From IMG/VR virus record IMGVR_UViG_3300041409_000458: 52,925 nt of DNA, one strand, 5' to 3'. Shown here in pieces: positions 2,388 to 52,925 of the stretch (position 1 is the first letter of the stretch; each line of letters starts with the position of its first letter). Origin of the DNA: a virus (taxonomy: Duplodnaviria; Heunggongvirae; Uroviricota; Caudoviricetes). Both the position numbers and the translations under genes were made by a program. Under the pieces are notes generated by a model. The model was not told the origin of the DNA and searched no databases. It saw only the letters and a list, made by a program, of their open reading frames with translations.

Positions 2388-2463
2388 AAATAGCACAAAG
2401 TTCTATAATGGAGTTTTTAGATACAATTTTAGTAGATTTTTTAAAACAATTAAAATAAAAATT

Positions 2464-2646
2464 ATGGAATATTCATTTTTTCGTGTAAGTGGTGATTCTT
2501 TAGAATATATCAAGACACTTTCACCAAAAACAACAACTTTTGTAAATGAAGAAGCTTATTATACAACAGGATTAACTGTACCTCAAGCTGAGGAAGAATG
2601 TCCAAATGGATTTTCAGTAGGACCAAGACCTCATCCACATAGCTAA
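2464..2646 (+). CDS. Hypothetical protein (60 aa)
   Basis: A-rich leader, and its stop overlaps the next start (TAATG). Confidence 0.55.
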   Translation: MEYSFFRVSGDSLEYIKTLSPKTTTFVNEEAYYTTGLTVPQAEEECPNGFSVGPRPHPHS

Positions 2647-2990
2647 TGAAAACTGCAAAATACTTAATTGTTATTGGTGTAATAATACAAATACTCACTA
2701 GTATGTTTTGGTTTCATATACCAAATATACAAATAGCTGAAATAGTAGAAGCATTAGGACAAATTGTAGGAGAGATATTATATTTTATAGCTTTTACGAG
2801 ATTATTTATAGAAGATAAAACCTTCAAGTATTTTCTTAGCTTTGTTAGAGATTTAATTATATTTGATATATTTGATATATTATTCTTAAATCCCTTTGAG
2901 ATAAGTACTCCAAAATATAGTAATTTTTATTTTGCAATAATTTTACTATTATATAAATTAATCAGAAAATTCTTAAAAAAAGAAGAATAA
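2646..2990 (+). CDS. Small multi-pass membrane protein
   Basis: About 4 hydrophobic segments and a basic C-terminus. TAATG coupling on both sides. Confidence 0.65.
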   Translation: MKTAKYLIVIGVIIQILTSMFWFHIPNIQIAEIVEALGQIVGEILYFIAFTRLFIEDKTFKYFLSFVRDLIIFDIFDILFLNPFEISTPKYSNFYFAIILLLYKLIRKFLKKEE

Positions 2991-3109
2991 TGGCTTGTGA
3001 AATAGTAATAAAACCGAAGGATGTACCTGTAAAACCTATTTACGTAGGAGCAGTAATGGAAAATTGCAGCTGTGATTCAACAACTACAACAACTACGGCT
3101 GCCCCATAA
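2990..3109 (+). CDS. 39-aa Cys/poly-Thr microprotein (not in ORF track)
   Basis: Translates to MACEIVIKPKDVPVKPIYVGAVMENCSCDSTTTTTTAAP. TAATG overlap with the upstream gene, and the same CxC...T(n)xAP ending as the next gene. Confidence 0.7.
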   Translation: MACEIVIKPKDVPVKPIYVGAVMENCSCDSTTTTTTAAP

Positions 3110-3119
3110 ATAATAATAT

Positions 3120-3521
3120 ATGAAAATAACTTGTAATAATTGTGAGGAATTAATGCAGAAATATCTATGTGATTTGCCTTCTGCGTGGTCAAAACAGATG
3201 GCTAAGGTTATCTGTAAGTTCATCAATCCTACTGTTCCTCTTGACTGTAATAGTGTTAAGAATTGTGAGACTTTAACCTCCTTATCCGCATTTACTGTGG
3301 ATGGAAGTGAGGTATGTATTACATACACTGATGAGAATGGTACAGCAGTTACTCGTTGTTTTGATATGAATGACGTAGGATTAGATTTGGACCCAAAATG
3401 TATAATGGACCAAGAAGATTGGGATTTGTTATCATGGAGAGACCAGATACAGGCAATTATTGACTATGCATGTACTTGTCAGCAGCACACTACAACCACA
3501 ACAACAACTATAGCTCCATAA
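3120..3521 (+). CDS. Cys-rich protein with C-terminal poly-Thr tail
   Basis: Paralogous to the N-terminal domain of the next gene (CETLTSLSAFTV vs CETVTSLSTFTV). Ends CTCQQHTTTTTTTIAP. Confidence 0.75.
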   Translation: MKITCNNCEELMQKYLCDLPSAWSKQMAKVICKFINPTVPLDCNSVKNCETLTSLSAFTVDGSEVCITYTDENGTAVTRCFDMNDVGLDLDPKCIMDQEDWDLLSWRDQIQAIIDYACTCQQHTTTTTTTIAP

Positions 3522-13648: not shown

Positions 13649-15916
13649 TTACATCCTTACAATTTCGCATTGGCCGCCGCTACAAGCGGTTGCTGCATAG
13701 TCACTCACATCCTTATATTCAGGCTTTGTTAAAATTTTCGATAAATCAATATCCTTATACTTTTTACAAATTGTTTCCCACTTATGTAAGATGTGAATAT
13801 CCTTAAGACAGCTAACCATCTTTTCAACATCACCTTTGAAGTAGTTCTTAGCAAACTTCTTACCTCTGTCCAGCCAGTATTTCTTAAGCAGAACTTGTTC
13901 TCTTGTTCCTGTAATAGGAATTTCCTTCTTGATATCCAAGATTGTAGAACAAGCAAGCCAAAGATTTTCATCGAAATAATGCAAGGCATCAACGATTAAT
14001 CCAGCTGCAAACATACTTCCCACTCCATAGAGCTTAATGATATCTTCCATAGGAACAACTTCTGTGTATGGTGCCTGAGCCCATCCTCTACTACCCATAT
14101 TAGATAAAAATGATATAGCTGTGAAAGATTCTCTATTATCCCATATGTAATTAATTACATCTGTCTTATCATCTTCTACAATTACAGTACATGATACATT
14201 ATGAGTGATACCTTCATAAGCACATCTCTCAGGTACAGTTCCCGGAATAACCCAGTTCTCTTGTACCAGTTTGATATACTCCAAATGCTTAACTCCTATA
14301 ATGTCATTCTTCAGGATTGCTCCTTCAGGAACACTAATAGGAACATATATTACATAATCACTCTTTGTGTCACTATGAACACTTTCTTCAAGCATGAATG
14401 GCATGTTTTCCTGCATATATTTGGCTACCGTAGACTCTTTGTTAATTTGCATGACTCTAAGGTATCTTGCAGCCTCCTCAGCTTTCAATCCTCCAGTTGT
14501 CATAGCAATAGTACCACTATTTCCTCCGGGCTTCACACAGGTTGTACGGGCTGCTGGATTGATTCCAATTATTTTGGCTATCTTCTCATTGGTCTCGATT
14601 ACCACCTGAGCTCCCTTTTGCAACCACTCTGGATTAAACAATTTAGGATTATTCATCCAACCTATTATAGAAACTCCTAATAAGCTCTCTCCTGCAAAGA
14701 TTTGTTCACTGATTTTTCCCAGATAAGGGAAAGAAACGTATCCTGCCTGACAGGTTCCCAGTACAGCAGCATCCTGACAAGCTCTTAGGAACTGTTCTAG
14801 GGTCTTAATTCTTTCAGCTACAATCTCATTAAGGTTACAACCTTGGACTCCAAAAAGGTCTTTATTAACCCTTGTAAACTCTTCTACGTGCTCATAGAGT
14901 ATCTTCTTGAGGTCTCCTCTGTATAGAATTGGAAGCTTGGAGATTTCATAACATGGATTGAACATATCAAACCAGCTATTGGCAAACACGAATCCTACAT
15001 CATTCATTCCATTATTCAGGTTCACAATCCTTTCGAATTGTTCCTTTGTAACATCACCCCTGATTAATAGAACACTATTGTTTGTACGTTCTCTTTGCTT
15101 ATTTTCCTGATACCAGTTACCTGTCTTGGACATTATCATTTCCTCATCATAAGGGTCAATGATAAAGTTTAGAGCTGCTCTTCTTACACCTCCAGAGAGA
15201 ACTGCATTGGACATGTGACAAATAATATCACCGACAGCAATAGGTCTAAGTTTATTTCCCTCTTTGGCTATCCAGTTATCCATCAACTGTTCAATCTTCT
15301 CCAGACAATTCTTCAATGGTTCGTATCCCGGAGCCTTGAAACCACCACTGATGTATGAACCTTTTTCCCTGATTTGACTTCCATCAAACCTGATTTTGCA
15401 ATTTGCGAATTGCGGAAAGGGCTGATTATCAACAAAGTAAGAGGACATTAGAACACCAACGGCATCTGCCCATCCTTCAATACTATCTTCGATGATATAG
15501 GTCACTGTTCCATTCTCTCTGGCTTGTACACGAGAGATATTATTAACGAATGGAATTAATAGTGATGTACCAACTCCACAGCCATTCAAAGCAAGATAGA
15601 AGACTTCCTGAAATACAGTGTTCCTCATGGCATGTGTTGAAACACAATTGTACATACGTAAATTACTTCTCTCAATTTGAGGATATCTATACTGAAGATT
15701 CCTCTGACTGGCTAAGACGCTCATATCTTTTACACTCTCGAGAGCTGAGAGTAAGTATGGTTCCAATTCCGGATTATTACCATACTTCAACCTGTGTCCA
15801 TTAATAATGTCCTCTGAGGCATCTTCCCATGTTTCGTAAGAACCCTTTTTTTCGTCCCACTTGAAATAGTCAGTATGCAATTTCAAATCTGACAGAAATT
15901 TTTTTCCAGTTTTCAT
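13649..15916 (-). CDS. nrdJ: Ribonucleotide reductase, probably monomeric class II (AdoCbl-dependent)
   Basis: YNC, NPCYE, GCNLNE and TCVKP motifs; IEDSIEGWAD effector region; C-terminal CSGGQCE. No beta subunit in the window and no intein. Confidence 0.8.
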   Translation of the reverse strand: MKTGKKFLSDLKLHTDYFKWDEKKGSYETWEDASEDIINGHRLKYGNNPELEPYLLSALESVKDMSVLASQRNLQYRYPQIERSNLRMYNCVSTHAMRNTVFQEVFYLALNGCGVGTSLLIPFVNNISRVQARENGTVTYIIEDSIEGWADAVGVLMSSYFVDNQPFPQFANCKIRFDGSQIREKGSYISGGFKAPGYEPLKNCLEKIEQLMDNWIAKEGNKLRPIAVGDIICHMSNAVLSGGVRRAALNFIIDPYDEEMIMSKTGNWYQENKQRERTNNSVLLIRGDVTKEQFERIVNLNNGMNDVGFVFANSWFDMFNPCYEISKLPILYRGDLKKILYEHVEEFTRVNKDLFGVQGCNLNEIVAERIKTLEQFLRACQDAAVLGTCQAGYVSFPYLGKISEQIFAGESLLGVSIIGWMNNPKLFNPEWLQKGAQVVIETNEKIAKIIGINPAARTTCVKPGGNSGTIAMTTGGLKAEEAARYLRVMQINKESTVAKYMQENMPFMLEESVHSDTKSDYVIYVPISVPEGAILKNDIIGVKHLEYIKLVQENWVIPGTVPERCAYEGITHNVSCTVIVEDDKTDVINYIWDNRESFTAISFLSNMGSRGWAQAPYTEVVPMEDIIKLYGVGSMFAAGLIVDALHYFDENLWLACSTILDIKKEIPITGTREQVLLKKYWLDRGKKFAKNYFKGDVEKMVSCLKDIHILHKWETICKKYKDIDLSKILTKPEYKDVSDYAATACSGGQCEIVRM

Positions 15917-17046: not shown

Positions 17047-17294
17047 TGAGAAATTACATATCCTAATCCTGTACCTGCCATTGCACCTGCAGAATAAGAA
17101 ATCCTATCCCACCAACTACCAATAGATATTCTTTTGACATTAATAGTCCATATCAAACTAATCATAAAACCTGTAAGTAACATTGGAATAATCATACCAT
17201 GTGCAATAAAATTTACATTCATAGCCACAAATGTAACTTGAAGTAATCCTGTTAGGAATAAGTGTGTTTTGGGGTTCTTAAATAATCTTTTCAA
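17025..17294 (-). CDS. Small membrane protein
   Basis: About 3 hydrophobic segments. Confidence 0.6.
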   Translation of the reverse strand: MKRLFKNPKTHLFLTGLLQVTFVAMNVNFIAHGMIIPMLLTGFMISLIWTINVKRISIGSWWDRISYSAGAMAGTGLGYVISHWLNTIL

Positions 17295-18274
17295 TTTTTC
17301 TTTTTAACTCTGTCATCAATCTTGTTTTCTCCCTTAATTGTTTTCCTGTACTGAACAAATCCTCTAAAGTTACCACTCCATCCTTCCTGAGAAGGATTCT
17401 TAGGTTGATATTCAGGATTTTCAGATGTTACTCTAGTATAATCCGTACCTTGTTCATGAGTACCATGTATCATTTCTGTTTTGGTCATAGCCCGAGCACA
17501 ATGTTCAAACGGTGACATATGACCACTTTTGAGTAAGGTATCGTGAAGTTTGATATCAGCTTCGTAGTCATCTTTACCTTCAAAGTTTAAGTACGATACT
17601 CTTGCACAACGTGCAGTTGCAATCTTCACCATAGCATCTTGTATCCTCTTAGTCCAAGGATTTAGTAAATCTATAGTATTTAATGATGTCATACAAGCTA
17701 ATCTAACTGTATCCATCTTATCACCAAAAGGAATATGCCACTCACCAGCTTTCAGTTGCTTTGGAGTACTTTGGTTATAAGCATCCAACATTTGATATGC
17801 TAATTCTTGTATATGTATTTCAGCTCCGTCTTCAGCTCTCAGTGCAAAGAAGTTTTCCCATTCTGTTCCGGTACAAATACATTTGTGATATAGATAAGGT
17901 TCTAATATTCTATTGCATATTTGTTTTGTGACTCCTGAAGCTTCACTTAATTGATAAGCTGCTGAACAAGCTGCATCCCTCGCAGCTAACCACTCTATCT
18001 CGGCTTGTTTTGAAAATATATCATCTAAATACTCATTACCCTGCATTCCCTTATGCTCTTTCATCCAACGTATTGGAATAAAAGGTTCATTTTTTACCTT
18101 TTCAAGCATTGTCTTGAATGGTATTGCTCTACTACTTGCTGAATTTCGTGATATCATTCTGTGAGTATTAAACTCAGATAATATGATTCTCGGAAAATCC
18201 AAAACAAAAGTAGTTATTCTCTGACCAAATTCATTAATTGAGTCAGCAATTATCTCAGCCTTTATTCTATTCAT
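17291..18274 (-). CDS. thyX: Flavin-dependent thymidylate synthase (phage type)
   Basis: EFNTHRMISRNSASSRAIP, KQICNRILEP, TARCARVSY, HMSPFEH. Confidence 0.88.
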   Translation of the reverse strand: MNRIKAEIIADSINEFGQRITTFVLDFPRIILSEFNTHRMISRNSASSRAIPFKTMLEKVKNEPFIPIRWMKEHKGMQGNEYLDDIFSKQAEIEWLAARDAACSAAYQLSEASGVTKQICNRILEPYLYHKCICTGTEWENFFALRAEDGAEIHIQELAYQMLDAYNQSTPKQLKAGEWHIPFGDKMDTVRLACMTSLNTIDLLNPWTKRIQDAMVKIATARCARVSYLNFEGKDDYEADIKLHDTLLKSGHMSPFEHCARAMTKTEMIHGTHEQGTDYTRVTSENPEYQPKNPSQEGWSGNFRGFVQYRKTIKGENKIDDRVKKKN

Positions 18275-20913: not shown

Positions 20914-21206
20914 ATCTTAATAAACGTTTTATCATCAATAGCTTTCCTAATCCACCTCATGAAAAGCATCGCTTTATCACGAGTACGAATTGTAGATGTT
21001 CCTATATCTCCAATAGGAACTGGGAATTTGTAGAGGTTAAAACGATAATCTTCCTCTGAGTCATAGTGGTCATACCAATCTTCATGAATTTCTTTATCTC
21101 TCTGAATATCCCTTACGACAAAGTAAAATATACCTTGACGAAAACTATCAAAGTCAACAAAATTATCTTTAACAAGATTTTTAATTTCTATATTATACCC
21201 TTTCAT
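20910..21206 (-). CDS. Hypothetical phage protein
   Basis: 98-aa ORF with ATGA coupling. Confidence 0.65.
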   Translation of the reverse strand: MKGYNIEIKNLVKDNFVDFDSFRQGIFYFVVRDIQRDKEIHEDWYDHYDSEEDYRFNLYKFPVPIGDIGTSTIRTRDKAMLFMRWIRKAIDDKTFIKI

Positions 21207-21634
21207 GCTATTATAAATTGTGATTTAAAGGCTTTTATTCCTATCCATTTATTGTAGGATTTATCTCCCATTTCTAGGACTCCTCGTGAAAACTGCTCTT
21301 TGGCTTCCATGTAATTCATTTGAGCTTTGTTCTTACATAGATGAAGAATTTCTCTTTTAAAGGAACCTTCTCCAAGTAAGGCAACATCAGCTTTTAGGTC
21401 AATAGAGCTACCAAAATACTTAAGCCATTGACTATCAATTTGTTCTATCTTAACTCTCTTTCCTGTAGCCTTCTTAGCTTTCTTGGAAAGTCTTGTCTTT
21501 TTGTTATAAAGAAAAGCTTTTTTACCTACATAGATTCTTCCATTATTAAGGTTTGTTATGAGATAAACGAATCCATAGATATTATCTGGTTGTTTATTTA
21601 CACATTTTCCACTTTGGTCAATCCAACAATTCAT
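21203..21634 (-). CDS. GIY-YIG nuclease domain protein
   Basis: GFVYLITNLNNGRIYVGKK...YFGSS...EAKEQ...YN. Confidence 0.8.
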   Translation of the reverse strand: MNCWIDQSGKCVNKQPDNIYGFVYLITNLNNGRIYVGKKAFLYNKKTRLSKKAKKATGKRVKIEQIDSQWLKYFGSSIDLKADVALLGEGSFKREILHLCKNKAQMNYMEAKEQFSRGVLEMGDKSYNKWIGIKAFKSQFIIA

Positions 21635-21647
21635 GTTTTAAAGGTTT

Positions 21648-21673
21648 AAAAGAGAGTAGGGTTTCCCCTACTC
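21648..21673 (-). terminator. Rho-independent terminator
   Basis: gagtagg-ggaaa-ccctactc followed by tctttt on the minus strand. Confidence 0.7.
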
Positions 21674-22367
21674 ATCTATTACAAATTTTGTTCTTTCGTA
21701 CTTAACTCCTCGTGGAACTTTATACTTTAATCCTACAATAATTCCCTTATCTCCAAGGAACCTTTCGTCAGTTTCGTCTCCGTTAATTACACTAAATCCA
21801 TTCCACGTCGAAGGTACAACTTTTTTGAATACCACAGCAACGTTTGCAACTTTATTTGTTAAAACTTGCTCGCAATATTTCCAATTGTGACCTGAGAATG
21901 AAAGAGTCAAATCATAATTATGAAGATTGTTTAGCATAGCCTTCCTGTGGTCTTTGGTATAGTCATAGAATTGGATATTATTAAAGCCACGTAAATCACG
22001 ACCTTGTTTCCTAAACTCTAAATCCCAATCTACATCACTCAAGAGGTTCAGTTCTATTGGGCTTAGCATTGAGTTTACATAATTCATTCCATAACTGCTC
22101 AAGAAATTCTGTCCTGTGATTTACAAAATATTCTGTCTTTCTTGACCTACTGGTTACCACATTATCAAATGATTGTCTACCTGCAAACTGGAGGCAGGCT
22201 GTTCTACATTCCTTAGTTGAAAACTTACATAAGTTCTCTCCTTTACTGTTAAGGTCTGTCGGCTGCAAAGATAAGTAATATGTTGGCATACTATTCTTTG
22301 CTGTCTTAGTGTTACTCTTGCCATCTGTCAAGAGGTTTCTTTTTCTAAAATATTCTATTAAGTCCAT
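21668..22367 (-). pseudogene. Gp88-like protein split by a frameshift (ORFs 22035-22367 and 21668-22102)
   Basis: N-half has LC-x7-C-x3-CL..AGR. C-half has LNLLSDVDW, FYDYTK, LTLSFS, NVAVVF, INGDETDERF and GLKYK. The halves overlap in different frames near 22050. Confidence 0.7.
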
Positions 22368-22400
22368 AAAAAGAAGAAGGAGAGCTGTATAGGCTCTCCA
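22368..22400 (-). terminator. Rho-independent terminator
   Basis: ggagagc-ctataca-gctctcc followed by ttcttctttt on the minus strand. Confidence 0.75.
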
Positions 22401-22416
22401 ACTACTTGATTATCAA

Positions 22417-23094
22417 TTACTTCACGTTATATTGGGTACTACCCACTACAATACTTGCTATTCTTCCTATTTTTGGACTAATGTAACCTAAAGGTGATTT
22501 CTTTTGACCTTTAATTGCATCCTTATCTAATGTTTTACCATTGATTAAAGTTACAGATTTAAATGTAGGATTTTGAGCAAATCTTAATACATCAGGCCAA
22601 TCAACCTTCTTGGCTTGAGCCTTAATGCCAGTATTCTGAACTGTATTTGCAGTTCCACTTCCAGCAACAACATTTTTAGTTATTGTTTTCTTTGGTCTTG
22701 GAGTTACAGGCTTTACAACCGGCGAACCAACTAAGGAATAAGTACGATAAGTACCATTGTCAGTGTAAGTAAATACACCATCACCAGCTAACTGGTCCAT
22801 AAATTTGCTTACAGTATCCTGTGTCCAGAAAAAATAAGGATAATCTCTCCGTAACTCAGTCTTAATTTCTAGAGTTGTTACGGTGTTGTTGGCTTTAGCC
22901 AAACTTGTTGCCACTGTTAGGCAAGCATCTTTCATTGCTTTCATATCTGTTGTTTTTAATTTTACTTGATTTGAGTTTACGGATATACAATTTCCTTCTG
23001 AATCACAAATATCCAGTCTACCATCCTTAAGGAGACGGAATACTTTAAAGGGTTCTACTAGAACCACTTCATCTCCGATTTTTATTTCAGCCAT
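22417..23094 (-). CDS. Hypothetical protein coupled to PARP (possible winged-helix core)
   Basis: Overlaps the PARP stop. Helix pattern TTLEIKTELR...TVSKFMDQL followed by a beta hairpin. Confidence 0.55.
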   Translation of the reverse strand: MAEIKIGDEVVLVEPFKVFRLLKDGRLDICDSEGNCISVNSNQVKLKTTDMKAMKDACLTVATSLAKANNTVTTLEIKTELRRDYPYFFWTQDTVSKFMDQLAGDGVFTYTDNGTYRTYSLVGSPVVKPVTPRPKKTITKNVVAGSGTANTVQNTGIKAQAKKVDWPDVLRFAQNPTFKSVTLINGKTLDKDAIKGQKKSPLGYISPKIGRIASIVVGSTQYNVK

Positions 23095-24278
23095 ATGATA
23101 TATTTTATGCGATTTTGTTGCTCATTATAAGCAATAATCTCGCTGTTAAGTAATCCATTACCAGCTTTAACAAAGGTACTATCGAATCCTCTTTTCTGTA
23201 ATTCTGAATAATTCAGTGGAAATGAGTTTCCCCGGAACCAGCCATCATAAACAAAAGGGTTTCCTGTGTGTACTTCATACACGAGAATTATTTTATCAGG
23301 GTCACTACCCGTATAACCTAAAGATTTCTGCATGTGCTCAGAGAAATAGTTACCATCACCATAAGCTTTACCTGAGAACTGAAAGTTTCCACCTGTAGGT
23401 CGAATCTTTAATCCTATCTCAAGTATGGGAATAACTGAAGTACAACGTGTACCATGAATTAAATGTTTCGTTGATTTGTCCTTCTGTTTGCCAACCCAGC
23501 CGTCAAACGTACTATCTTCTGCAGGTTTGTTAACCTCGAAAATAGCATGAACTTTTCTACCATGGCTTTGCTTTAATAGGTAATCAATCTCCTTGTATAC
23601 CTTGGCCTCAGCCATTGTGAGCCCGAGTTTGTCTAGCATGGTTTGAGATTTTTTAGTCTCGGCTTTTTTCTCTTTAGCTGTTTTAGGTTTGATTAAAGAT
23701 ACTTGAGCAGCCATAGCATCCAGATTATCCTGTTCACTTACCAAGGTCTTATTAAGTTTGATATTTGGCAAAAGATAATCATTTACTTGTCCCATTCTAC
23801 GAGGAATAACCGTGTAAAGTTCTACCAGTTTATCATTTACTTTTTTAGCTCCTGTCATTGTAGAATCGTCCATCTTATTTAACTCATCAATAATCTTCTG
23901 AGCTGCGTCTACTTGTTTTTGACTTACTGCCTCAGCTTTAACAGAATATGTAGTAGAAACCAGTCTATCTGTGTAAGCTTTCATTAAAACCAAGAAGTCA
24001 TTTACCAGCTTTTCCTTAACGTTCTCTAGAGGTGTATTATCCTTGGCTACCTTTGTCACTTCAACTGTTACAAAGTCTGTGACGTCTTTATATCCTTTTC
24101 TAATCTTCTCATTATATTTTGTACTCCACATGTGCATTGGGTAACTTGCAGTTTGTACAGTACTTTCTACTCTTCCGTATTTAACGTTAAAGTTTGAACC
24201 ATTGGCTTGCATTTCATAAAACTTATTGTTATTATTAGTGCTAACCATTATCAGTTTAGCATATTTTTCGTTGCTCAT
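23082..24278 (-). CDS. PARP-family ADP-ribosyltransferase (WGR + regulatory HD + catalytic)
   Basis: WGR: NNNKFYEMQ...KYGRV. HD: SQKQVDAAQKII...ELYTVIP. Catalytic: HGT, GDGNYFS, KSLGY, NSEIIAYNEQQNRIKY. The H-Y-E triad is intact. Confidence 0.92.
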   Translation of the reverse strand: MSNEKYAKLIMVSTNNNNKFYEMQANGSNFNVKYGRVESTVQTASYPMHMWSTKYNEKIRKGYKDVTDFVTVEVTKVAKDNTPLENVKEKLVNDFLVLMKAYTDRLVSTTYSVKAEAVSQKQVDAAQKIIDELNKMDDSTMTGAKKVNDKLVELYTVIPRRMGQVNDYLLPNIKLNKTLVSEQDNLDAMAAQVSLIKPKTAKEKKAETKKSQTMLDKLGLTMAEAKVYKEIDYLLKQSHGRKVHAIFEVNKPAEDSTFDGWVGKQKDKSTKHLIHGTRCTSVIPILEIGLKIRPTGGNFQFSGKAYGDGNYFSEHMQKSLGYTGSDPDKIILVYEVHTGNPFVYDGWFRGNSFPLNYSELQKRGFDSTFVKAGNGLLNSEIIAYNEQQNRIKYIIWLK

Positions 24279-24840
24279 TTTCTAGAGTTTTTAAGTAAAC
24301 CAATTTAATTGCCTGTCGAGCTGAATCAGTAAGATTCCTAGAACCTATACCTGCATAATTTTGAGTTAAAATAGGAATAAGTTCAGGTTTAAATTCAGTT
24401 CCATTCCAATAAAACCAGAATCCTTTAATAATATCAAAAACATGTACAGGTTTTCCCATCTGAATAGCCATTTCACAAGCCCAAGCTGTACCTCCAGCTA
24501 CTATTTGTTTCCCTGTAAGGTTTGAAAATCCTTTATCTTTATCAAAAGGTTGTACAATTCTGGAAATAGCAAATATAGCATCAGCTCCATTAGCTTGAAA
24601 CCAATTCCTTCTTACTAAATCCTTTCCGGGAAATTCCTCTGTTGGTCGTTGTAAAGCTGAAGCAGCAGCAAATACATCAGTTTCAATGAGTTGTTTTACT
24701 TCAGCTGAAGCACGTTTTAAGTCAGAGGGACGATAGTGCTTATGATTATTAAACCCATGCTCTCTACCGATTCTGTCCCATTCCATATCTGCTCCTTCAC
24801 AGCCTCCGCTGTGGTTAATATAGTTATTCATATTCTTCAC
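24256..24840 (-). CDS. SLOG-superfamily (YspA/DprA-like) nucleotide-binding protein
   Basis: HSGGCEGAD, RRN...ADAIFAI, GGTAWACEMA, AGIGSR. Confidence 0.7.
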   Translation of the reverse strand: MKNMNNYINHSGGCEGADMEWDRIGREHGFNNHKHYRPSDLKRASAEVKQLIETDVFAAASALQRPTEEFPGKDLVRRNWFQANGADAIFAISRIVQPFDKDKGFSNLTGKQIVAGGTAWACEMAIQMGKPVHVFDIIKGFWFYWNGTEFKPELIPILTQNYAGIGSRNLTDSARQAIKLVYLKTLENEQRKIC

Positions 24841-25909
24841 GATTTAATTTGATGATGTATGGAAAACGTGGAATGTCATCAGGAGTTCTGTTAAAGTATT
24901 TAACAGTTGCCTTAGTTCCAATATATTTTGCTCTTTCATTCCAGATAGTAGCAAGATATTCAAAATCTCCTTTTACATTACTCTTAAAGGTTTTATCCTT
25001 CTTATCATGTTTCATAACGAAATATCCAATTGTTCCTGCACGTCCACCTTCACCTTCAATGGCATCAAGAATTACAAACTCTTCATCTATGAAATCTTTC
25101 TTCTTAAGTAACTGTTTACTTCTCTTTTTCTCATAGTTTCCCAAATCGAGACGGATAATTGAACCTTCGAAGCCCATTTCCAAAAATTGGTCATGGTAAC
25201 GGTCAATATCTTTCTGATTTTTAACTTCGTAAGTTGGAACAAGTACAAGATTAGGATTAGGATTAGCTGCTAACCATCTCTTTAGAGCGATAAGTCTATC
25301 TGAGAATTTACCTTCATGGTCTGGAAAATCATAAACCCACATTTGAACCACGTCCTTACTTTCCTGAAGCTCTTCCTTAGTTGGAGTTTGTTTCTTACAA
25401 AGGCTTACAATCTTATTGAAATCATCGTGATATTTGTGATTATACAATTCTCCATCTAGAGTGACTTTATCCTGATACAAGTGAGGAGCAGCAAGATAAG
25501 CCTTACCATTTCTACTCATTAGAGTATTATTAGCATTAACAGCCCGTAGTCCATCAAGCTTAGGCTGTATGAAAGTTGGGACAGTAAAGAGTAATTTCTC
25601 GTACTTTCCCAACTCATGAGCCAACATAGGTTCAAAGAATTTCTTTTCATCTGTTAAAATTTCATTATAACCTCCATCAATCTTCTTCTGCCATTTGGCT
25701 TGTGCTTCCGCCAATGCCTGTTGTTCTGGAGTTGTTTCATTACTTCTACCAACGTTTTTTGCTTTACAAATAGTTGGTTTTGAGGTTGTTATTGTTCCTC
25801 CTTGAATACCTTCTTCAGTAAAGAAGTGGTCGTCCTCAGCTGTTATCTGCCAAGTCTGTATTTGTCCCTTCTGGGTGTACTTCAGGAGGAGTGGGAATGT
25901 TTTCTTCAT
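24824..25909 (-). CDS. ATP-dependent DNA ligase
   Basis: QPKLDG (motif I), SRNGK, LDGELY, EGSIIR, LLKKK, PRFP. Confidence 0.93.
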   Translation of the reverse strand: MKKTFPLLLKYTQKGQIQTWQITAEDDHFFTEEGIQGGTITTSKPTICKAKNVGRSNETTPEQQALAEAQAKWQKKIDGGYNEILTDEKKFFEPMLAHELGKYEKLLFTVPTFIQPKLDGLRAVNANNTLMSRNGKAYLAAPHLYQDKVTLDGELYNHKYHDDFNKIVSLCKKQTPTKEELQESKDVVQMWVYDFPDHEGKFSDRLIALKRWLAANPNPNLVLVPTYEVKNQKDIDRYHDQFLEMGFEGSIIRLDLGNYEKKRSKQLLKKKDFIDEEFVILDAIEGEGGRAGTIGYFVMKHDKKDKTFKSNVKGDFEYLATIWNERAKYIGTKATVKYFNRTPDDIPRFPYIIKLNREEYE

Positions 25910-26102
25910 TTGTTTTCTGTTTTATTTCTGAATATGCATAATATTTTCCATTGAACTGCATTGCCTTTTTAGGGGCGGGCATGAGATGTACAGGACCTTC
26001 TCCAGTTAGTGCTTCATTTAAGTCACTTTTAAGAAGGAAGGTTCTCACATTAATCTCCCACAATCTATATGAGATATTATCAATCATCATTACATTTTCC
26101 AT
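25836..26102 (-). CDS. Hypothetical protein
   Basis: Fills the gap between the ligase and the phosphoesterase remnant. Confidence 0.45.
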   Translation of the reverse strand: MENVMMIDNISYRLWEINVRTFLLKSDLNEALTGEGPVHLMPAPKKAMQFNGKYYAYSEIKQKTNEENIPTPPEVHPEGTNTDLADNS

Positions 26103-26103
26103 A

Positions 26104-26409
26104 TCATATTTCTATTATTAAAGGTTTGGTTATTAATTGAGTATAATCATTCGTCAGAACTGCTCCATTAGAGAACATTACTCTTCTGCTATTAGATACG
26201 CTTTTAAGATGAACTCCAAAATTGTCATGAATGTGACCAGAACAATGAAGTTTAAGACTTGTAAGCCTCTTTTTGATTACTTCAAATAAGTCTTCACATC
26301 CGACATGTCCATCTTTATGCCAAGCAGTTCTGTTTGCAGCGTCAACCATATCTAAGATTCCGAATGCTGGTCCATGAGTGTCTGATATGTGAACAATTTT
26401 TAAACTCAT
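26104..26409 (-). pseudogene. Metallophosphoesterase with in-frame internal deletion
   Basis: Motif I (ISDTHG) joins directly to motif IV context (THGPAFGILD). GD and GNHD motifs are missing; HVGC and GHIH are kept. Confidence 0.7.
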
Positions 26410-26843
26410 TTGTGTATTATATTTTTTGTTGAAAGGTTGTTATCTAAATAGTGAATAGCTTTTGTAAGTAGGTCCTTTCTATCATCAAAATAGCCTATTC
26501 CAAAATTGCATTTAGTGCATAGTAAACCTCTGATAATTTTGCTATTATGACAATGGTCTATGGATAAATTTCTTCCATTTTCTCCAATAGTTTTCCCACA
26601 AATAGCACATTTACCTTGTTGTTCATCAAGTAGAATCTGATAGGTGTTTTTTGAAATGCCTGTTTTGTGTTTCAGACTATTCCAATTCCTTGAAGTTCTA
26701 TTAATTTTAGCACGTTTGACACATTGTTTTGTGTTACAAACTCTGCAGTCAGGTCTTAAGCCATCTTTCTTCTGCTTATCTTTATAAAATTCACTAAGTG
26801 GTTTTGGTACACCACATTTTGTACATGTTTTTAAATCTTCCAT
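26406..26843 (-). CDS. Endonuclease VII-like HNH homing endonuclease
   Basis: CTKC...CRVC N-terminal zinc finger; QQGKCAIC...IDHCH...RGLLCTKCN. Confidence 0.88.
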   Translation of the reverse strand: MEDLKTCTKCGVPKPLSEFYKDKQKKDGLRPDCRVCNTKQCVKRAKINRTSRNWNSLKHKTGISKNTYQILLDEQQGKCAICGKTIGENGRNLSIDHCHNSKIIRGLLCTKCNFGIGYFDDRKDLLTKAIHYLDNNLSTKNIIHK

Positions 26844-47907: not shown

Positions 47908-48330
47908 TCATTTAGATAAAAATGACTCAATCTTGGTGATTAATTGCTCTTTTTGAGCGTGAATTCTGCTGTAGTTCAGTTTGCTTGGATGTAGAGTCTC
48001 TAATATTTCAAGGTTGCAACTCCAAGTTTTAGGCTTTGAATAAAAATAATCTCGTGCCACATTACCCAAAAGCCAAACTTTGTCTGCAGCCTGTACTTTA
48101 CTCTCGAGAGTGCTAGACCAATGTTTGTCCATATCTTCCTGAGAAGGTGTTTTATGTCCTTTTTCAAGAAAACCGGGAAATTTATCACTAACAGCTTCAA
48201 ATTCAAACATTTCCTGAGCTTTTTCCTTAGATATACCAACCCAACTTAATATTTCATAAAGAAGGGTTGTATCGTAAGGTACTCTTTGCTTGGCTGCTGG
48301 AGGAGCTTGTCCTATTAAGAGTATTTTCAT
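47908..48330 (-). CDS. Small UDG-superfamily fold protein
   Basis: ILLIGQAP, VWLLGNVA, LHPS. Confidence 0.7.
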   Translation of the reverse strand: MKILLIGQAPPAAKQRVPYDTTLLYEILSWVGISKEKAQEMFEFEAVSDKFPGFLEKGHKTPSQEDMDKHWSSTLESKVQAADKVWLLGNVARDYFYSKPKTWSCNLEILETLHPSKLNYSRIHAQKEQLITKIESFLSK

Positions 48331-49899: not shown

Positions 49900-51453
49900 T
49901 TATTGTTTTATACGTTTACGAATTTCCTCCAAAGTGTATTCTTTGGTGGTTTTACCATCCAGATAGACGGTTTGAAGGTAACCTGTAGCCTCTTGTACCC
50001 ATGTTTGTTGGTCCTTGGCTATTAATTGCCCTTCTACGCTCATTTGGATGCTTATAAGACCCTTTAAGGACTTTTTGGTACCATCATCAGTGATTGGGTC
50101 TTTGAAGATTTCTCGGGGTTCTATCCATGTTTCTCCTAATGAAGGACCACCTTGGTCAAACATATCTTCAGTAGCTACATGAGTAAGTTCACCATAGGTA
50201 GCTTTTACAGCAAAACCAAAGGTATCTCTGGTATTCATCTGGTAGGTGTAAGAACCAATACCAAATACTATGTTTGTAGAAGCAAAACCTTTGGCTTTTA
50301 GACGTTCGCATATCTGAGTAGCCCTTTCGAGTGTAATAGAATCTCCGTAGATTGCTCCAATGTGGCTATCCAGCACTTTGTACTCATTACCATCAGCTCC
50401 TTTTACAATTGTACCTCCGAAAACATCCCACAGAAGCTCAACTACACCTTTTTCGACTGGAGAACCTTTCTGCTGAGGAGTTACTCTACTTGCACTACCA
50501 TTTTCATTAGTGATTCTATCTATCAAGTCCTCAAGTTCTGAAGTACCACAAATAATATCAACTGGGTCTCCAGAGTCAGGACGAATCACCAGTTTACCAT
50601 CTCTGCTAAGGATTTGCTCCTTTAAAGCAGGTAAATACTCTGTTAAAACTTTCCACAAATCCCAAGTGTCAGATACAACTGATAGAATACCAGTAGGATA
50701 TATATCAAGTAAATTCTTAAATGTACCAATTTCATCATCTTTGGTTCCCATGCACATCACCGAGTGTTCGGTGGCAGGCACAGATGCACCAATAAGACCA
50801 GTAGCTTTATAAGAATTACGCAAAGCATAGATAGCAGGAATAGTGTCGGTACCAGTAAAGGACGTAAGATGACCCATTCCTGATAATATAGCTGTCTCCA
50901 CAGAAGACATGCCACGCATGCTAAAATCGTGACCTTGCCACTGAACTCCAGCATCTGAACCAGTAGTTTCTTTTGCATATTTAGATAGTATTTTCCAGTA
51001 TTCTGCAGCTATGGTAGCTGAAGTTATTGGCTGCCACAGTTGACAACTCAAGAGTGTCTCAAGATAGTTTGTCAGCCAGTAAAATTCTGGTTTGGTGTTA
51101 CAAATGGTCATACAAGGAACCCTGATTGGAACCCTTGTTCCTTCAGCTACTGCTTTTATACAAATCGGAAGATATCCTAATTCATGTAAAGCCTTAATAT
51201 GTTCTGTAGAAGTGTTAATTGCAAATTTATATTCTTCTTCTACTTGTTCCCAAGGCGTATCAAAGAATTCCTTTTGGAATTTACCTTGTAAATACTTGTG
51301 AAGAAAGTGCTGTAATCCAAAGAATATGATTGAATTCACTCCTTTTATTCTACTCTTTCGAGCCGTAAGATTACTATAAATCATCGAAGTATGTTTAGGA
51401 TATTGCCTAAAATGTTCGACCTTATAATAGTCCGTTAATATTATCGGATTCAT
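49900..51453 (-). CDS. nadV: Nicotinamide phosphoribosyltransferase (NAMPT)
   Basis: TDYYK, HDFSMRG, GTDT, PATEHSVM, SVVSDTWD, IRPDSGDP, IYGDSIT, FGIGSY, KKSLKG. Confidence 0.96.
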   Translation of the reverse strand: MNPIILTDYYKVEHFRQYPKHTSMIYSNLTARKSRIKGVNSIIFFGLQHFLHKYLQGKFQKEFFDTPWEQVEEEYKFAINTSTEHIKALHELGYLPICIKAVAEGTRVPIRVPCMTICNTKPEFYWLTNYLETLLSCQLWQPITSATIAAEYWKILSKYAKETTGSDAGVQWQGHDFSMRGMSSVETAILSGMGHLTSFTGTDTIPAIYALRNSYKATGLIGASVPATEHSVMCMGTKDDEIGTFKNLLDIYPTGILSVVSDTWDLWKVLTEYLPALKEQILSRDGKLVIRPDSGDPVDIICGTSELEDLIDRITNENGSASRVTPQQKGSPVEKGVVELLWDVFGGTIVKGADGNEYKVLDSHIGAIYGDSITLERATQICERLKAKGFASTNIVFGIGSYTYQMNTRDTFGFAVKATYGELTHVATEDMFDQGGPSLGETWIEPREIFKDPITDDGTKKSLKGLISIQMSVEGQLIAKDQQTWVQEATGYLQTVYLDGKTTKEYTLEEIRKRIKQ

Positions 51454-51937
51454 AATTTTTTAAATATTTAAGTGCCTTTTTTAATAACTCAGGGTCATCG
51501 TTGAAATTACCCAAAGCTGAATTACATTTAAAACATAATAAAGCCCTAACTTTTCCCGTTTTATGGTCATGGTCAACGGCCATAACTTTATGCTTATCAC
51601 GAGTCTCAGTTCCTCTACATATAGCACATTTTCCTCCTTGATTCTTCAACATCTTGTTGAAATCATCAAGAGTGATACCATACATTCTCTTAAGATGAGC
51701 TTTTCTTGAACAAACAATTCCTTCAGGAGAACTATAAAATTTCTTCCTTTTGTCCCTATTTAAGAGGTTGGCTTCTTTGACCTTATCAGGATTTTTAAGA
51801 TTCCATTTTCTGCTAGTCTCATTTCTACAGATTTTACATCTATATGTAAATCCTGACTTGTCATATTTGTCCTTGGTGAAATGGTCTGAATCAAGGGGTT
51901 TCTCCTGATTACAACCTGTACATATTCTTTTTTCCAT
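51422..51937 (-). CDS. Endonuclease VII-like HNH homing endonuclease
   Basis: CTGC...CKIC; QGGKCAIC...VDHDH...RALLCFKCN. Confidence 0.88.
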   Translation of the reverse strand: MEKRICTGCNQEKPLDSDHFTKDKYDKSGFTYRCKICRNETSRKWNLKNPDKVKEANLLNRDKRKKFYSSPEGIVCSRKAHLKRMYGITLDDFNKMLKNQGGKCAICRGTETRDKHKVMAVDHDHKTGKVRALLCFKCNSALGNFNDDPELLKKALKYLKNYESDNINGLL

Positions 51938-52334: not shown

Positions 52335-52799
52335 TTAAACTTTTGTGTGTAAAATCTCAACAAGTTGAGAAGGTCCCCACAATTGGGGTATTTGATATCT
52401 GTGGCAAAATACGTCAACGTTTCCCTTTCTTTGATAATTTGTGTTACAAATAATATAAGTATTAGGTAAATTGCCAAATTTTCCTAGTTCCATAAGAGTA
52501 ATAGGTGAAATGGTATCAGCGGCAAAGTAGAAAACTCGTGCTGTTGCTCTTTCGAGATAAGTGAGTTCCCAGTCTACTTGCTGATAAAAGCTTGGATTGC
52601 TTATATCCTGTTTCCATGTACTATCCCAATCTTTTCTTCTAGGATTAAGGAAAGTCCATGTTCCATAATTCTTGGATTTTTCAAATAAACCTATTAAATG
52701 TGCTTGCCAGTTGTCAGCTTTCCCCATTTCTATACTTCCACCAAGGAATAGTGAGGGTCCATTAAGCTGAGGATAATCTGGAGGAGTAAATATTTTCAT
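52335..52799 (-). CDS. Nucleoside 2-deoxyribosyltransferase-like protein
   Basis: FLGGSI...W...NPRR...QVDWE...SPITLMELG. Likely start is the ATG at 52799. Confidence 0.85.
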   Translation of the reverse strand: MKIFTPPDYPQLNGPSLFLGGSIEMGKADNWQAHLIGLFEKSKNYGTWTFLNPRRKDWDSTWKQDISNPSFYQQVDWELTYLERATARVFYFAADTISPITLMELGKFGNLPNTYIICNTNYQRKGNVDVFCHRYQIPQLWGPSQLVEILHTKV

Positions 52800-52803
52800 A
52801 AGT

Positions 52804-52925
52804 TTATCCAAGGAATTTTACATATGTTTCTTCAAAGATAGCTGGGTCACAAGGATAATATTCTCCTTTGACTCCTCTAATTATAACATAACCTTTAGGA
52901 ACATTGTAAGAAGTTCCTTCTAAAG
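52804..52925 (-). CDS. PGDYG-like phage protein, C-terminal part (5' end outside window)
   Basis: LEG...GYVIIRGVKGEYYPCDPAIFEETY. Confidence 0.75.
   Translation of the reverse strand, partial: LEGTSYNVPKGYVIIRGVKGEYYPCDPAIFEETYVKFLG

Follow-up and report, generated by a model that had tools for sequence, protein, structure and literature searches.

A phage-encoded PARP-class protein with WGR, helical and ART domains and its conserved winged-helix neighbour

A minus-strand gene of a large soil phage was found to encode a complete WGR, helical-domain (HD), and ADP-ribosyltransferase (ART) protein of the PARP class, referred to as P0001. The gene lies in the window, meaning here the whole stretch of 52,925 nucleotides that was analysed; the window belongs to a longer IMG/VR virus record of 146.7 kb (IMGVR_UViG_3300041409_000458, ~76% complete), and its DNA occurs in a soil-metagenome DNA run that may represent the source sample. 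The class assignment of P0001 was confirmed by domain, conservation, and fold evidence, which in combination place its identity far beyond chance. Phages and bacteria were already known to encode enzymes of this class, and P0001 is a sound further example. The new part is the pairing of the PARP gene with a gene for a winged-helix protein, for which genome-wide exclusivity and phyletic co-occurrence provide further support; a literature search for a description of such a pairing found none. At a rough probability of 0.45, we favour a model in which P0001 would be a break-activated ADP-ribosyltransferase acting with its winged-helix partner on phage DNA in repair or end marking.

Domain architecture and family of the phage PARP

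An earlier note on this DNA had placed an open reading frame (ORF) at 23082-24278, and it was present exactly there, on the minus strand, with an ATG start and a length of 398 aa. The gene and its domains are as follows.

23082..24278, minus strand: PARP gene (P0001), WGR-HD-ART (ORF, Pfam PARP, profile against PARP2, AlphaFold2 (AF2) model, Foldseek)
24069..24266, minus strand: WGR domain, ~residues 5-70, with NNNKFY 16-21, YGR 34-36, and KGY 61-63 (Pfam, conservation, model)
23649..24017, minus strand: helical domain (HD, PARP_reg-like), ~residues 88-210 (phmmer, profile, model)
23085..23639, minus strand: ART catalytic domain, ~residues 214-398, with H275-G276-T277, Y311, K318-S319, Y322, and E380 (Pfam, alignment, profile)

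The WGR-HD-catalytic architecture, which had been likened to the core of PARP1/2/3, was supported by sequence, profile, and fold. The Pfam PARP catalytic domain (PF00644) was matched at E 1.2e-14 (54.8 bits, cut-off 26.7). Matches to Pfam WGR (residues 14-68, E 8e-4, 19.9 bits) and PARP_reg (residues 117-205, E 0.013, 16.1 bits) were below their cut-offs of 22 and 26.8, respectively, and lay in the expected order. When P0001 was compared with PDB sequences using phmmer, residues 92-343 matched the HD and catalytic fragment of PARP1 at 5.6e-11, with the HD alignment starting at residue 92 or 113. Both motif pairs quoted in the earlier note were recovered within this alignment, which paired SQKQVDAAQKII with SKRQIQSAYSIL and LYTVIP with FYTLIP. 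A family profile built from 76 sequences matched the WGR-HD-CAT entry of PARP2 at 2.8e-37 with WGR and HD collinear; profile positions 75-210 corresponded to the PARP2 HD, and the family motif NDEiIVY was aligned with YNEYIVY of PARP2.

The AF2 model of P0001 (pLDDT 91.5, pTM 0.89) consisted of a beta-rich WGR domain at residues 6-60 (strands 6-47, helix 48-60), a bundle of five to six helices at residues 90-206, and then an ART sandwich. The top Foldseek matches were PARP1 WGR-HD-CAT chains on a double-strand break (4dqy_C and 4opx_C, TMq 0.71) and included PARP2 with HPF1 on a break (6x0l_P), and the Foldseek probability was 1.00 against each of PARP1, PARP2, PARP3, and PARP4. P0001 thus carries a WGR domain, as the profile was aligned with the PARP2 WGR and the fold matched WGR-containing chains, and also a helical regulatory domain, on which phmmer, profile, and model agreed despite the weak Pfam PARP_reg match.

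Residue conservation was assessed in the alignment of the 76 sequences, which were 28-61% identical to P0001. Fourteen positions were invariant, namely N18, K19, Y21, G35, R36, Y63, R160, and E182, followed by H275, G276, P294, G303, Y311, and Y322 in the ART domain, and three others were nearly so (E380 and K318 in 74 each, S319 in 71). All NAD-site residues of PARP1 were retained in P0001 (H275-G276, Y311, K318-S319, Y322, and E380); they fall in the motifs HG[ST], G.YF, KS..Y, and E.I.Y, which the profile aligned with the NAD site of PARP2. The catalytic H-Y-E triad reported previously is therefore kept as H275, Y311, and E380, the last being aligned with the Glu of YNEYIVY in PARP2. Pfam PARP was matched by all 76 relatives and Pfam WGR by 49 at E<=1e-3 (best 1.6e-10), while none matched Pfam PARP_reg at 1e-3.

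P0001 belongs to a very large and uniform family of compact prokaryotic and phage PARPs of ~400 aa. An exhaustive HMMER search retrieved 1,552 representative clusters (formed at 50% identity) with E<=1e-3, of which 277 reached E<=1e-30; almost all were ~370-435 aa long and matched end to end. From a word-indexed search, 765 relatives were obtained, many of which were 60-85% identical and located on contigs of 130-170 kb; full length was retained in hundreds of relatives at this identity, and a protein identical to P0001 was present on a 169.9 kb contig. Megablast of window positions 22000-26000 against a phage collection gave no match, and tblastn found full-length genes annotated as 'poly (ADP-ribose) polymerase' in Cellulophaga phages phi4:1 and phi17:2 (35% identity), with others so annotated in Xanthomonas phages XacN1 and Xoo-sp13, among others. 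In a 90-row PARP tree, the phage sequences formed one clade (SH-aLRT 96), and the Bacteroidota and Bacillota/Spirochaete clades comprised 63 and 14 rows, respectively.

Most bacterial PARPs consist of WGR and PARP domains with an H-Y-E triad (Perina 2014, PMC4245714). The closest parallels in design are HaPARP of Herpetosiphon aurantiacus and CdPARP of Clostridioides difficile CD160, which, like P0001, are compact proteins (~400-450 aa) with WGR, helical domain, and H-Y-E ART, and which carry out DNA-dependent, PARP-inhibitor-sensitive automodification with poly(ADP-ribose) (PAR) in vitro (PMC5966428, PMC8120803). In bacterial PARPs, the W position of WGR is most often occupied by Tyr (PMC5966428), and their helical domain was detected by modelling, not by Pfam (Garcia-Saura et al., PMC5966428). 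P0001 resembles these enzymes in having Tyr at the W position and an HD that is poorly seen by Pfam.

The same collinear WGR-HD-ART arrangement is found in the break-activated clade-1 enzymes of humans (PARP2, PARP3, and the C-terminal module of PARP1), and human PARP1 and PARP2 share with P0001 the NAD-site residues H, G, Y, K, S, Y, and E. P0001 differs from the human enzymes by the absence of zinc fingers, BRCT, and the N-terminal tail, and its identity to PARP1 and PARP2 was ~20% in the Foldseek alignments. T4 Alt, ModA, and ModB are likewise phage-encoded NAD+-dependent ADP-ribosyltransferases, a property predicted for P0001 from its sequence; however, they are R-S-E mono-transferases of the cholera-toxin type that have host-protein targets and no WGR or HD (PMC8120803, PMC7824862). 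P0001 is of the H-Y-E, diphtheria-toxin/PARP type, and neither an R-S-E motif nor a cholera-toxin-type fold was found in it, so the contrast with these enzymes had been drawn correctly (PMC8120803, Table 1).

The novelty implied for a PARP in a phage was overstated, as such genes have been catalogued before and the nearest homologue in a cultured phage is annotated. PARP genes were recorded in four double-stranded DNA viruses, including Aeromonas phage Aeh1 and Cellulophaga phage phi4:1 (Perina 2014, PMC4245714), PARPs were noted in jumbo phages (Iyer 2021, PMC7824862), and 'PARP1' was listed among the NAD-dependent phage genes in a survey of gut jumbo phages (PMC11662467).

Linkage with a winged-helix partner

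The gene directly downstream of the PARP gene encodes the partner protein P0271.

22417..23094, minus strand: conserved partner, 225 aa (P0271), overlapping the PARP stop by 13 nt (synteny, fold, exclusivity to PARP loci)

Using tblastn with the window neighbours, the partner was found to adjoin PARP in nine of 10 related phage loci, including phi4:1 (gp030), in spite of a PARP identity of just 35%. A hidden Markov model (HMM) of the partner was then run on the 5,166 ORFs of 92 loci. It matched exclusively ORFs adjoining PARP, in the nine phage loci and 47 cellular loci (48 of 80 after one iteration); five of the remaining cellular loci stop at the PARP gene, and partner presence there cannot be assessed. 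The partner lay directly downstream of PARP on the same strand everywhere but in one Pacearchaeota locus (L022), where it was directly upstream, and it was by far the commonest recurring neighbour family of PARP.

The linkage extended to whole genomes. In five whole bacterial genomes of 6-11 Mb, the partner was confined to the PARP locus as a single copy or, in Fibrisoma, a tandem pair. Among 121 Spirosomataceae genomes, PARP was present in 17, all of which had the partner adjacent, and the partner was absent from 99 of the 104 genomes that gave no PARP hit. Four loci were fetched from the five partner-only genomes (L093-L096), and no PARP lay within 3 kb in any of them; the partner followed two pPIWI_RE_Z genes in L095 and was located among carbohydrate-metabolism genes in L093 and L096. 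One of the 17 PARP-bearing loci (L097, G011:C1:6054000-6060500, ORF 2463..3293) encodes a 276-aa WGR-ART PARP without the HD, with the partner next to it. This protein may be a natural 'HD-deleted' variant, for which a constitutively open state is predicted.

On the PARP tree, the partner accompanied every member of the phage clade and 47 of the 63 Bacteroidota rows, and none of the 14 Bacillota/Spirochaete rows. In 10 of these 14, a macro/DarG-like gene was found upstream of PARP instead, so that the Bacillota PARPs, a separate clade of the tree, differ from P0001 in their neighbour. The ten loci (L013, L019, L036, L039, L064, L071, L079, L080, L086, and L089) have a gene of ~140 aa on the PARP strand, immediately upstream of PARP, which matched the DarG macrodomain in PADLOC (2.9e-7) and Pfam Macro (7e-4); a writer and eraser layout replaces the winged-helix partner there. 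Around the bacterial PARP and partner genes (Spirosomataceae loci L026, L095, and others), one or two pPIWI_RE_Z genes were observed in 13 loci, and a divergent WYL-WCX regulator was observed in 13 loci.

The AF2 model of P0271 (pLDDT 85) contained a small N-terminal beta domain, a winged helix at residues 49-121, a disordered linker at residues 131-155, and a C-terminal alpha/beta domain. The order of elements that defines the winged-helix fold (H1-S1-H2-H3-S2-wing-S3) was observed as H49-69, E71-73, H74-84, H92-104, E108-112, and E117-121. Fold searches were dominated by this region, which matched many solved winged helices (VIA Z about 9-10, root-mean-square deviation ~2 Å over 64-70 residues), with BlaI and MecI among the Foldseek matches. 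The winged helix is the part common to all partners, most bacterial ones being just 82-120 aa long, and it bears a signature that is invariant or nearly so (K78, R82, Q92, S96, R117, and Y119 in P0271 numbering). Some homologues have added AT-hooks or SWIB (AT-hook and WYL_2 matches being weak), and in three long bacterial forms the protein itself includes a WGR domain that scores above the Pfam cut-off. The winged-helix fold, these fusions, and the added WGR suggest that the partner is a DNA-associated protein. Complex prediction of PARP with residues 46-128 of P0271, from unpaired alignments without controls, gave a score of 0.00, which is evidence neither for nor against a complex. The accessory protein of human PARP1/2 is HPF1, whereas a winged-helix protein would take that place beside the phage PARP.

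Gene block and NAD-related genes of the phage

The PARP gene is the third of four minus-strand genes (ligase, SLOG/DprA-like, PARP, and partner) that overlap by 13-23 nt. Upstream of the block are rIIA, rIIB, and endonuclease VII. The other features of the block and the NAD-related gene of the window are the following.

24824..25909, minus strand: ATP-dependent DNA ligase, 361 aa, first of the block (Pfam DNA_ligase_A_M 4.8e-12 and OB_2; phrog_114 2.8e-68)
24256..24840, minus strand: SLOG/DprA-like gene, 194 aa, overlapping the ligase and PARP genes (phrog_768 3e-10)
22379..22399, minus strand: terminator-like hairpin and T-run right after the partner stop (7 pairs, 5 of them G-C, T-rich tail; a consensus match only)
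49900..51453, minus strand: NadV/NAMPT-type nicotinamide phosphoribosyltransferase (Pfam NAPRTase 3.3e-37, NAMPT_N 9.2e-13)

The 13-23 nt overlaps and the hairpin after the partner gene suggest that the four genes are one transcription unit. In related phage loci L002-L006, a homologue of this ligase gene is located just upstream of PARP. In phi4:1, gp031 (a P0001 homologue of the same phage clade, 35% identical over 98% of the query) is followed by gp030, the partner homologue, and then by the DNA ligase gp029, two genes downstream of PARP; the order is thus PARP, partner, ligase in phi4:1 versus ligase, SLOG, PARP, partner in the window, and the phi4:1 ligase is of a different, longer ATP-dependent type. 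Ligase-like genes also flank PARP in two metagenome-assembled genomes, one of Bacillota (L086) and one of Nanoarchaeia (L078). The SLOG/DprA-like gene gave no match in Pfam or PADLOC. It was considered as a conserved ADP-ribose-handling partner of PARP and rejected, as among related loci it was found just in L008, ~5 kb away.

NadV would recycle the nicotinamide released by PARP. Neither NMNAT (PF01467) nor Nudix (PF00293) was detected in the 146.7 kb record, and a complete phage route of NAD salvage is thus not evident. NADAR enzymes remove ADP-ribose from DNA bases. A NADAR gene (PF08719, 3.3e-24) was observed ~2 kb past the window end (G000:C1:21769-22158, locus L012), and it is the sole ADP-ribose-processing candidate in the record. 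A search of PADLOC-DB v2 at E<=0.01 gave no match for the phage PARP, the bacterial PARP, or the partner; only bacterial neighbours were matched (pPIWI_RE_Z and DarG-like macro).

Other genes of the window, all on the minus strand, were recorded as follows. A gene of the GP88 family (PF17338) is split at 21668..22367 into two ORFs, 22035..22367 and 21668..22102, which overlap and are read in different frames. The halves resemble one gene in L002-L005, where they lie head to tail within 0-6 nt, and the split could reflect a frameshift, a pseudogene, or an error of assembly. A 143-aa ORF at 21203..21634 had phrog_447 'NAD synthetase' as its best PHROG, together with a GIY-YIG-like start and a homing-endonuclease PHROG match; the label is probably a misnomer, and the ORF is probably not part of the NAD genes. 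A 101-aa ORF at 26104..26409, without a Pfam or PHROG match, has metallophosphoesterase-like motifs (ISDTHG near the N-terminus and GHIHD later) and is far shorter than such enzymes; an ORF of the same length lies beside the ligase in L003, L004, and L006 (56-68% identity). Two endonuclease VII-type genes are present (26406..26843 and 51422..51937), the second directly flanking NadV. Nucleotide-metabolism genes at 52335..52811, 47908..48330, and 17291..18274 are nucleoside 2-deoxyribosyltransferase-like, of the uracil-DNA glycosylase superfamily, and ThyX-like, respectively, and 13649..15916 gave a weak sub-threshold match to the class II ribonucleotide reductase insertion domain (22.8 bits, cut-off 27).

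Possible functions of the PARP and its partner

From these data we infer the enzyme activity of P0001, its DNA dependence, the type of product, the role of the partner, and the purpose of the system. The earlier note had suggested that the enzyme protects or marks phage DNA ends, modifies defence proteins, or drains NAD, and these are kept here as alternative possible roles. Activation by DNA breaks would be expected by analogy, from the presence of WGR and HD and from the behaviour of HaPARP and CdPARP (PMC5966428). According to the model of repair or end marking, the WGR domain would recognise DNA nicks or DNA ends, which would release the helical domain from blocking the NAD+ site, and the H-Y-E ART would then transfer ADP-ribose as a short polymer or as single units. 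The acceptors could be PARP itself, the winged-helix protein, and/or phosphorylated DNA ends, and the winged-helix protein would serve as a dedicated DNA-bound partner, either target or cofactor. The two genes would be transcribed in one block with the ATP-dependent DNA ligase of the phage, and the unit would signal or mark breaks in replicating, recombining, or restriction-damaged phage DNA, leading to sealing or end protection, while the phage NadV would help to restore NAD+. There is a precedent for a link with ligation, as PARP1-3 ADP-ribosylate phosphorylated DNA ends in vitro and a 5'-phosphate modified by PARP3 was suggested to feed ligation (PMC8385414).

Whether the product would be a polymer is a separate matter. 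The earlier note had considered poly(ADP-ribose) synthesis plausible because the Glu required for it is kept, and the Glu is indeed kept (E380); it is necessary, not sufficient, for a polymer, and may permit such synthesis by P0001 without establishing it. Human PARP3 also has the H-Y-E triad. It shares the PARP domain plan and yet is a mono-transferase (PMC8385414), so architecture and Glu together do not decide the product. In the profile alignment, an insert of ~18 residues found just before the catalytic Glu in PARP2 was absent from the P0001 family, and the Tyr two residues before the Glu in YNEYIVY was replaced by Asn in P0001 and in 65 of the 76 relatives.

Several observations weigh against the favoured model. 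The shortened loop and the Asn in place of Tyr make polymer synthesis by P0001 uncertain. Adjacency of the PARP and partner genes is no demonstration of physical interaction of their products. No ligase was found beside PARP in phage loci L007-L009, and a literature search for an assay of any phage PARP found none. Macro, bacterial PARG, and ARH were not found in the 146.7 kb record, which covers ~76% of the genome, and a reversible PAR cycle is thus not evident in the phage; this differs from HaPARP and CdPARP, whose genomes encode a PARG reversing the modification. The WYL-WCX and pPIWI_RE_Z setting in bacteria suits conflict systems equally well as repair.

It is unlikely, in our estimate, that the enzyme serves mainly to take over the host or to counter its defences by modifying host RNA polymerase, nucleases, or defence proteins, in the manner of T4 Alt, ModA, and ModB, albeit with an H-Y-E fold. 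DNA binding would then merely localise or activate PARP, and the winged-helix protein would direct it to its targets. Phage PARPs were indeed suggested to act like other phage ARTs, maybe transferring chains (Iyer et al., PMC7824862), the gene is located among early/middle-type genes (rIIA, rIIB, and endonuclease VII), and an intact catalytic site is equally compatible with this role. Alt-type enzymes, however, need no WGR or HD, whereas the break-sensing apparatus is strictly conserved here (N18, K19, Y21, G35, and R36). The ligase as a recurring neighbour is also unexplained by host take-over, and the same pair of PARP and partner is chromosomal in Bacteroidota, where take-over makes no sense.

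To a conflict module we give the same low odds. PARP would sense foreign or broken DNA ends and burn NAD+ or heavily modify proteins, halting replication; this would amount to abortive infection in Bacteroidota, and in phages to the exclusion of superinfection or to competition between phages, with the partner as a regulator or an antitoxin-like brake. The divergent WYL-WCX regulator (13 loci) and pPIWI_RE_Z (13 loci; itself a PADLOC model) are typical of defence islands, the Bacillota clade with the DarG-like macrodomain gene upstream of PARP has a toxin/antidote-like layout, the distribution of PARP is patchy (17 of 121 genomes), and the phage NadV could shield the phage from NAD+ loss. On the other hand, neither PARP nor the partner was matched by a PADLOC model, and a literature search for PARP-based defence found none. 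The ligase neighbourhood in phages would be unexpected for an exclusion toxin, and a whole clade of large lytic-type phages shows strong conservation of the module.

Less probable than either is a dedicated DNA-end ADP-ribosyltransferase, which would act mainly on the 5'- or 3'-phosphate of ends and nicks in phage DNA and, like PARP3, attach single units to it. The modified ends would be shielded from host exonucleases or made ready for the neighbouring ligase, with protein modification being secondary. PARP1-3 modify phosphorylated ends in vitro, sometimes better than themselves, and the adduct blocks phosphatase and has been put forward as serving ligases (PMC8385414). Consistent with such a role are the location of the phage ligase in the PARP gene block, the shortened loop before the catalytic Glu, and the NADAR gene of the same genome. 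Nevertheless, this chemistry was observed entirely in vitro and with eukaryotic enzymes, no eraser of phosphate-linked ADP-ribose (macrodomain, PARG, or ARH) was found in the 146.7 kb record, and the dedicated winged-helix partner is left unexplained. That P0001 is an inactive or purely structural PARP-like protein is very improbable, given that all NAD-site residues are kept with strong conservation over 76 diverse relatives and that hundreds of close relatives (60-85% identity) retain the full length.

Returning to the model of repair or end marking, we tentatively propose, as a possible extension, that PARP and the winged-helix protein form a self-contained two-component ADP-ribosylation system of the large-phage clade and Bacteroidota. 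The PARP of this system would sense breaks, and the winged-helix protein, bound to DNA, would be dedicated to it as either its substrate or a cofactor of its active site, comparable in function to histone or HPF1 for PARP1/2. If true, the pair would be a minimal prokaryotic model, and possibly a form resembling the ancestor, of break signalling by eukaryotic PARPs. In eukaryotes, DNA-damage signalling depends centrally on PARP1 and PARP2, which are also drug targets. The family described here carries the break-sensing core without the eukaryotic extras, and it comes with a small, tightly linked partner as well as, in phages, a DNA ligase. Since phi4:1 is cultured on Cellulophaga baltica, it offers a practical experimental model. 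If the two proteins work together, they would provide a minimal and genetically tractable system (phi4:1 gp031/gp030 or Spirosoma/Larkinella) that may address how WGR-HD-ART proteins are activated, what they target in cells that lack chromatin, and whether ADP-ribosylation serves phages in repair, end protection, or conflict.

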